Shown piece after piece: positions 7,864 to 8,032 of a stretch of DNA of 10,475 nucleotides. Every line of letters begins with the position of its first letter. The stretch's first letter is position 1. The notes under the pieces are model-generated. The model was given only the letters and a program-made list of their open reading frames with translations, had not been told where the DNA came from and ran no database searches. The stretch comes from Promethearchaeota archaeon (GTDB taxonomy: Archaea > Asgardarchaeota > Hermodarchaeia > Hermodarchaeales > Hermodarchaeaceae), in the NCBI GenBank assembly GCA_048939245.1, contig JBHLPR010000074.1:1-10475 (forward strand), in the 5' to 3' direction. The position numbers were made by a program, and so were the translations under genes.

Positions 7864-7970
7864 TGGTGGACCGGCCGGGATTTGAACCCGGGGCCTCCGC
7901 CATGCCTTCGTCACCGGTACAACAGCATTATACCGATAAAGACGGCGATCTACCGCTGATCTACCGGCCC
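7864..7970 (-). tRNA. tRNA-Ala(GGC) with a 32-nt intron (7907-7938) at position 33/34
   Basis: Acceptor stem GGGCCGG/CCGGTCC with the G3:U70 alanine determinant, plus ACCA. The CGTC/GACG helix has TT^T and AA^G bulges and the intron stem is ATCGGTA/TACCGGT. The spliced arm reads CCGTC-TTGGCAT-GGCGG. Confidence 0.94.
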
Positions 7971-8032
7971 ATTTGATTTCGATTTCTTTTGCAATTTGAG
8001 GTTATAAGAATTTTGGCAATTAATATTTCGGT

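Follow-up and report, generated by a model that had tools for sequence, protein, structure and literature searches.

The 10,475-nt window analyzed here, taken from a metagenome-assembled genome (MAG) of an Asgard archaeon (relatives with this locus bear the name Hermodarchaeota), carries in its tRNA-Ala(GGC) gene what we read, on balance, as a composite homing cassette. This cassette would comprise an endonuclease gene, a promoter, a replacement for the 5' exon of the tRNA and a protective intron, designated here intron A, and its endonuclease gene would be prone to later loss. On the minus strand, the host gene rpl37e is followed by a remnant of the tRNA gene, a spacer, an open reading frame of 687 codons, 62 nt with a promoter, and a complete tRNA-Ala(GGC) gene with its encoded CCA. 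The features are as follows:

10176..10358, minus strand: rpl37e, host gene (from its translation; Pfam Ribosomal_L37e match on the orthologue in L096)
10130..10161, minus strand: stranded remnant of the original 5' exon, tRNA positions 1-33 (direct repeat; alignments with relatives and sister copies)
10097..10129, minus strand: left arm of the cassette, 33 nt from the remnant to the start codon (homologous to the same stretch in L096-L099)
8033..10096, minus strand: free-standing gene for a LAGLIDADG homing endonuclease of 687 aa, P0001 (predicted fold and motifs)
7971..8032, minus strand: right arm with a putative archaeal-type promoter for the restored tRNA (sequence reading)
8019..8000, minus strand: BRE/TATA-like stretch, with TTATAA at 8007..8002, about 31 nt before tRNA +1
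7970..7867, minus strand: tRNA-Ala(GGC) (Rfam tRNA match of 54.4 bits with a 35-nt gap within the anticodon loop)
7939..7970, minus strand: functional 5' exon, positions 1-33, apparently supplied by the cassette (Rfam tRNA match; 100% identity to the exon of relatives)
7907..7938, minus strand: intron A, a 32-nt bulge-helix-bulge (BHB) intron between positions 33 and 34 (BHB drawn by hand on the computed fold)
7864..7906, minus strand: 3' exon, positions 34-73 plus the encoded CCA (Rfam match), followed by the native downstream flank

The stranded remnant agrees with the start of the tRNA-Ala gene at 29 of 32 bases, the three changes being TAG to AAA (two bases) and T33 to C, the latter at base 10130, which corresponds to tRNA position 33. 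The direct repeat formed by the two copies (7940-7972 against 10131-10163, that is, tRNA positions -2 to 32) is identical at 31 of 33 bases, and the similarity of the two 5' copies, 94%, drops to the background level at 32/33 in the window and, in the sister copies L096-L099, at 33/34. The remnants of these sister copies read ...CCGTCTT before passing into element sequence, and that of L097 is a perfect copy of positions 1-33, which places the left junction exactly at 33/34. The earlier note on this DNA had seen the similarity end at position 32; this is correct for the window itself, and the sister copies move the breakpoint to 33/34. Compared with an uninterrupted gene, the inserted DNA spans 10129 to 7907 of the minus strand, its point of entry being exactly the 33/34 boundary, and the insertion junction is the same phosphodiester as the site of intron A. 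Along the occupied allele, the left half-site ...CCGTCTT and the right half-site GGCA... are nowhere contiguous. The identity of the exons among all alleles hides the right-hand end of the conversion tract. That the target had already carried intron A, left to decay behind the remnant, was rejected on account of the sharp end of the similarity at 32/33 or 33/34; the left arm resembles intron A no more than expected by chance. In Logan contigs of four runs covering 7700-10400, the cassette was seen in runs of four studies, with contigs that break inside the tRNA; none joins across the cassette, the apparent joints belonging to other tRNAs, and these contigs are uninformative on excision and allele frequencies. 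The samples in which the cassette occurs include sediment and mangrove material, and no RNA run was found to contain the stretch. The flank downstream of the tRNA gene clusters with those of the genus relatives in the flank tree. We rejected as cargo the 154-aa gene located there, which is a host gene unrelated to the 154-aa gene beside the orthologue of the endonuclease in L064.

Read by hand, the tRNA-Ala(GGC) gene shows the G3:U70 pair, an anticodon stem CCGUC/GGCGG, U32 and U33, then 32 nt, and then GGC AU. The Rfam match, this reading and the fold all bear out the description in the earlier note of a 32-nt BHB intron after position 33, directly before GGC, and its remark that the unspliced gene reads TAT at the anticodon position also holds, UAU being the three bases after U33. 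The junctions of intron A form a strict BHB, with a central 4-bp helix CGUC/GACG, 3-nt bulges UU|U and AA|G, a hairpin of 11-13 bp and an outer helix of 2 bp (fold, z = -3.7). Across six alleles, 100% of the cells in the BHB pairing are standard pairs and all five variable sites of the intron stay paired, through changes from G-U to A-U or the reverse. Removal of the intron yields a standard cloverleaf with its anticodon, identical in sequence to the intronless genes of G014 and G018, and intron A has, in both the geometry of its bulges and helix and the cloverleaf left after its removal, the attributes of a BHB tRNA intron. Rfam gave no group I intron match for this 32-nt sequence with its BHB motif. 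ARAGORN missed the gene when run without the intron option and, with the option, misplaced the intron and called a TGC anticodon; the "tRNA-Arg with a 1694-nt intron" that it reported for contig C102 is likewise false.

A search for intron A, the promoter module and the left arm elsewhere in the genome returned chance 10-16-mers only, so intron A is not a multicopy "transposing" intron. Non-canonical introns are common in this genome according to Rfam and ARAGORN. Within the window, two tRNA-like genes, one at 7148-7259 with a partial Rfam match at 7196-7248 (27.3 bits, Phe-like GAA loop) and one at 6218-6290 with an inverted repeat with tRNA-Gly at 6218-6276 (UCC loop), probably also carry non-canonical introns.

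The module upstream of the functional 5' exon contains …CCAAAATTCTTATAACC…. The same module precedes tRNA-Ala(GGC) in L064/L067, L068, L073, L074, L076 and L093, from another Asgard family, where these tRNA genes lie tail-to-tail with orthologues of P0001 of 36-50% identity, and it also occurs upstream of tRNA-Ala in G016 and G018; it was not found upstream of other tRNAs in the genome of the window. The similarity of the two repeat copies begins at tRNA +1. Because the repeat starts exactly at this position, behind a tRNA-Ala promoter module known beside orthologous endonucleases, the direct repeat is, by its structure, a carried piece of the gene and not a target-site duplication.

The gene between the two tRNA copies, proposed in the earlier note to encode an endonuclease, indeed has the predicted fold of a LAGLIDADG enzyme. 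The double-motif LAGLIDADG fold consists of two alpha-beta-beta-alpha-beta-beta-alpha half-domains packed via two LAGLIDADG helices. A phmmer search over 1.8 billion representatives retrieved 284 relatives of P0001, and an AlphaFold2 model built from an 86-sequence alignment reached a pLDDT of 93.7 and a pTM of 0.90. The top Foldseek matches of this model in the PDB are all LAGLIDADG enzymes (probability 1.0; target TM 0.58-0.68), namely the intein endonucleases PI-PkoII and PI-SceI (with entry 2cw7 among the matches) and the archaeal intron enzymes I-Tsp061I and I-DmoI. In the predicted layout, N-terminal helical, HTH-like domains, which make up about 400 extra residues, precede a C-terminal double-motif nuclease whose motif helices end ...VVNSD(421)S and ...LIAED(518)GSF, with D421 and D518 as the motif acids; in 86 homologues, the conservation of D421 reaches at least 90% and PEDG is the consensus of its block. 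Neither the whole protein, nor pieces of it, nor the family profile found anything usable in Pfam (LAGLIDADG_1/2/3 included), NCBIfam, PHROGs or the PDB sequences, and the isolated domain had no Pfam, NCBIfam or PDB sequence match even at E = 10, so that membership in the LAGLIDADG family is assigned from the predicted fold and the motifs. By its dN/dS of 0.28 against a 79%-identical relative, the gene is under purifying selection, and we consider P0001 a maintained, probably active, double-motif LAGLIDADG endonuclease. A public protein collection holds a 373-aa product on the contig of the window and the full 687-aa protein on a 7,954-base contig of another assembly; the public gene model for 8033-10096 on the former may be shorter than the open frame.

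The site was then compared among related MAGs and contigs, of which close kin are not independent samples. A search with rpl37e as the query gave matches in 39 of 41 genomes. In all 13 other genomes of the genus, tRNA-Ala(GGC) lies 13-14 nt after the rpl37e stop codon with no ORF between them, so that the cassette is absent from these 13 relatives, and their tRNA-Ala exons equal that of the window except for a single C>T in the 5' exon of G010. The gene occurs in three forms:

Form A, with the same 32-nt intron at 33/34 and no endonuclease gene: G004/G017, G008, G010 and G011 (four lineages)
Form B, with a canonical 37/38 intron of variable sequence: G001, G002, G003, G006, G009, G012 and G013 (7 of 13)
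Intronless: G014, the sole such genome in the genus

A single orthologous tRNA-Ala(GGC) gene displays three intron states within one genus, with differences between sister species, and constitutes a compact natural system for the study of intron turnover. Since seven of the 13 empty members carry a 37/38 intron and one has no intron, the recipient of the cassette probably carried a canonical 37/38 intron. The earlier note had proposed that the element ends at 7907 and delivers the 5' exon and the intron into an intronless gene; the locus can be read with this extent, and it is the "intronless" recipient that needs to be amended. In addition, the earlier note had held that the same intron in relatives without the element would refute its proposal. 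Such relatives do exist, in the four form A lineages and in the contig L105, yet the criterion discriminates poorly, because loss of the gene by recombination of the two 5'-exon copies would leave the intron in place.

Outside the genus, loci with other histories were observed. In G015 (L022), of a sister genus, tRNA-Ala has a 27-nt D-loop intron and there is no endonuclease gene. In G016 (L027), which together with G018 belongs to genus g2, a decayed 5' fragment of an older allele, with the start of that D-loop intron, lies by rpl37e; the promoter module comes next, and then a complete tRNA-Ala that has a 37/38 intron and differs in its T-arm, again with no endonuclease gene. In G018 (L023), about 120 nt of unrecognizable DNA precede the promoter module and an intronless tRNA-Ala, and an endonuclease gene is likewise absent. 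To judge from their arrangement, these three loci resemble the remains of older invasions in which the entire tRNA allele was replaced.

A cluster look-up of the 79% homologue of P0001 yielded further occupied contigs, L096-L099 with full flanks and L062, and these share at the same site the architecture of the window, that is, rpl37e, remnant, gene, promoter module, 5' exon, intron A and 3' exon. As for co-occurrence of the intron with the endonuclease gene across related genomes, the comparison suggested in the earlier note, all five occupied alleles, from two element lineages, carry intron A. L096, L097 and L099 fall in a 100/100 clade with G002 and G006 in concordant trees of the left and right flanks, and G002 and G006, their closest empty relatives, both have the 37/38 intron of form B. 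Between the window and L096, the cassette is 79% identical in amino acids and 86% in nucleotides, with a dS of 0.37, whereas rpl37e and two neighboring host genes are 55-75% identical in DNA and saturated at synonymous sites, which indicates that the element is younger than the host split and spreads horizontally and site-specifically. With its patchy presence at one conserved site and a divergence below that of the host, the gene shows a pattern expected of a homing endonuclease.

The intron itself behaves in a similar manner. Lineages with flanks of 60-75% identity share 88-97% identity in intron A, and the B introns at 37/38 are 53-85% identical and follow the divergence of the flanks. When mapped on the two flank trees, the presence or absence of intron A requires 5-7 changes; shuffled labels do as well, and A and non-A alleles are mixed within each of the well-supported shallow pairs. 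Comparison of these loci shows transfer of the cassette between Hermodarchaeota lineages, at one and the same site and always with intron A, and it is quite likely that the intron travels with the cassette. In the JGI contig L105, the 5' exon directly follows the native rpl37e spacer and the endonuclease gene is lacking, and the intron is nonetheless the variant specific to the cassette lineage of L096. The flank of L105 is 93% identical to that of L097 and places it in the same shallow clade as G002/G006 and L096/L097, which contains three states: empty with intron B, occupied with intron A, and gene-less with the same intron A. On this comparative evidence, intron A persists where the endonuclease gene is absent, and L105 is likely a product of gene loss.

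The 33/34 intron is not a universal companion of this clade of endonucleases, as seen from G018 and from the orthologues of family f6, where the tRNA-Ala beside the gene has an uninterrupted anticodon loop (L068 and L073). On contigs named Thorarchaeota (L064/L067, L068, L072-L074, L076 and L093), orthologues of 36-50% identity are convergent to tRNA-Ala(GGC), whose 3' end is some 10-55 nt away; a D-loop intron is present in nearly all of these tRNA genes, and some also have a 37/38 intron. In the Logan contig L063, which encodes a 51% orthologue, the order is LSm, rpl37e, a remnant of tRNA-Ala positions 1-27, 370 nt and the endonuclease gene, and 7 nt past the stop codon of the latter the 3' end of a tRNA-Ala in opposite orientation coincides with the end of the contig; by its arrangement, the cassette has here entered the same host locus in a second way. 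The 44% homologue of L065/L066 has no tRNA in its vicinity and instead overlaps with the end of a gene of the DUF87 type (HerA-like ATPase).

Paralogues with about 30% identity to P0001 over the C-terminal 430 aa exist in the genome of the window (G000 contigs C32:578-1939 and C74:24355-25704, L002 and L003) and in relatives (L038, L041, L042, L043 and L050). They lie tail-to-tail against the 3' ends of a NuoD/NiFe-hydrogenase-like gene and of an FAD-linked oxidase gene, and several are bracketed by decayed repeats of 50-80 nt of those gene 3' ends, with 72-82% identity. The arrangement points to a family of Asgard endonuclease cassettes with the common design of an endonuclease gene plus a replacement gene end, each with its own target gene.

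We propose the following mechanism. The cassette would consist of the left arm, the free-standing LAGLIDADG gene, the promoter, fresh tRNA positions 1-33 and the 32-nt BHB intron. The enzyme would recognize and cut uninterrupted alleles, either intronless or with a 37/38 intron, around ...CCGTCTT|GGCA, and repair of the break would copy the cassette into the cut allele, leaving the old 5' exon stranded after rpl37e. The promoter of the cassette would then transcribe the new 5' exon, intron A and the native 3' exon, and the host splicing endonuclease would take out the intron. Where the target is a protein gene, its replacement end is free to diverge and would so escape the enzyme; because the sequence of a tRNA exon cannot diverge, the intron would serve as the protection, and it would keep the restored tRNA gene from being cut again. 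Left of G34, the restored gene differs from the uninterrupted target by the intron alone. We give even chances at best to the proposal that intron A confers immunity on the restored gene. Later, recombination between the two 32-33-nt exon copies would delete the gene without a scar and leave an intron-bearing, probably resistant allele, and such resistance after gene loss may explain why intron A is common without the gene.

Intron A could also be an older, independent resident that spread by ordinary recombination or by an intron-specific route, with a cassette that landed at, or recognizes, the exon-intron boundary. An order of intron first and gene later would fit the alleles with intron A and no gene (G004/G017, G008, G010, G011 and L105), and non-canonical introns are common both in this genome and in Asgard archaea generally (10.64898/2026.10.13.758758). 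We nevertheless find this explanation unlikely in view of the clade of G002 and G006, in which the empty alleles have a different intron and every occupied allele has intron A, and of the intron variants, which track the cassette lineage even in the gene-less L105. Moreover, intron A is found nowhere else in the genome, and an enzyme that cuts the junction of the exon with intron A would also cut the restored gene, where this junction is unchanged. A different possibility, to which we also attach little probability, is that intron A is a hitch-hiker of co-conversion with no protective role, the enzyme cutting outside the anticodon loop or no longer cutting at all. Co-conversion of flanking markers is the rule for homing (PMC2790892), the f6 orthologues stand beside a tRNA-Ala with an intact anticodon loop, and G018 pairs the promoter module with an intronless tRNA. 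Against mere hitch-hiking argue the coincidence of the insertion junction with the intron site at one phosphodiester, the intron as the sole difference between the restored and the uninterrupted gene left of position 34, and the diverged replacement ends of the protein-gene paralogues (72-82% identity), a solution impossible for a tRNA exon.

Finally, the 5'-exon copies could be attL and attR of a small integrative element that entered by site-specific recombination, its recombinase acting in trans or lost. Integrases usually target the 3' half of tRNA genes, and the copies here belong to the 5' half. We rejected this reading, which appears very improbable to us, on the grounds that the 2.2-kb insert contains a single gene, whose fold is that of LAGLIDADG enzymes and not of integrases and which matches no integrase family, that the repeat sets in precisely at tRNA +1, preceded by a foreign tRNA promoter, and that the paralogues show decayed, diverged repeats of gene ends in place of exact att cores. 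In its favor, a 33-nt direct repeat in a tRNA gene is a classical signature of archaeal integrative elements, and an insert in Caldiarchaeum has been read that way (PMC3293823).

The Caldiarchaeum case is instructive for the homing cassette that we favor. In the tRNA-Thr(GGU) gene of Caldiarchaeum subterraneum, a 5' fragment is followed by a 1.87-kb insert with one ORF and by a tRNA with an additional intron at 24/25; for the 271-aa product there was no more than a prediction of a DNA-binding or recombinase-like protein, the insert is multicopy, and the proposed model of intron gain assumed site-specific integration (Sugahara et al. 2012, PMC3293823). The two loci share the upstream 5' fragment, a one-gene insert of roughly 1.8-2.2 kb that ends in a new 5' tRNA part and a non-canonical intron, and the coexistence of insert-bearing and insert-free alleles among close relatives. 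The present locus differs in its LAGLIDADG gene (by fold), in the site at 33/34 and not 24/25, in having a promoter of its own and in the persistence of the intron after gene loss, as seen over multiple genomes. In collaborative homing, a free-standing endonuclease is paired with an ORF-less group I intron, as in F-CphI with cyanophage psbA and T4 mobE with nrdB (PMC6083498, PMC2790892). By analogy, our cassette would work in the same way without belonging to the cases described so far: its endonuclease gene is located outside the intron and adjoins the interrupted gene, the intron sits at the presumed target, and the two are co-inherited at the target gene, here in five of five occupied alleles. 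In contrast to the self-splicing group I introns, phage protein genes and demonstrated cleavage of those systems, the present one would combine a protein-spliced BHB intron, a cellular tRNA gene split with a duplicated exon, and a predicted cleavage.

The enzymes of archaeal rRNA BHB introns (I-DmoI, I-Tsp061I and I-PorI) have the same fold and the same splicing chemistry of their introns, but they measure about 180-200 aa and are encoded inside the intron, whereas the gene studied here lies outside its 32-nt intron and encodes ~400 extra N-terminal residues. Mobile ORFs of fungal mitochondria carry a replacement gene end (Allomyces atp6 and Glomus mORFs, PMC3630166) and similarly place an endonuclease gene together with a substitute gene end in a conserved gene, the original end being left as a remnant; they differ in that organelle protein genes are targeted, the C-terminal part is replaced and immunity comes from divergence, in contrast to the tRNA 5' part, promoter and intron of our cassette. 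A 2026 census of Asgard tRNA introns described repeated recent gains, called their route of arrival open, and found no link to mobile elements, to copying between tRNAs or to reverse transcription (10.64898/2026.10.13.758758). In the literature we found no description of a free-standing LAGLIDADG gene coupled to a BHB tRNA intron. The locus is related to known kinds, namely homing cassettes with a replacement gene piece, collaborative homing and the Sugahara model, and its comparative support is unusually complete.

As a worked example, the tRNA-Ala(GGC) locus has kept three stages in close relatives, empty with another intron, cassette plus intron, and intron alone. It would provide a concrete route for the gain of odd archaeal tRNA introns and carry the concept of collaborative homing over from phage introns that splice themselves to introns of cellular tRNAs that are spliced by proteins. 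An older idea holds that tRNA introns protect tRNA genes from invading elements, and the locus would give substance to it. It is conceivable, if rather doubtful at this stage, that "vaccination scars" left by homing-endonuclease cassettes account for a substantial share of the non-canonical tRNA introns in Asgard (and other) archaea, in which case a free-standing LAGLIDADG gene would invade a tRNA gene and bring along a replacement exon as well as a BHB intron by which its own target is split, the endonuclease gene would later be deleted between the exon repeats, and the intron would stay as a resistant allele able to spread by itself. If true, such scars would represent a general route by which BHB introns arrive in tRNA genes and provide a functional reason for their odd positions.
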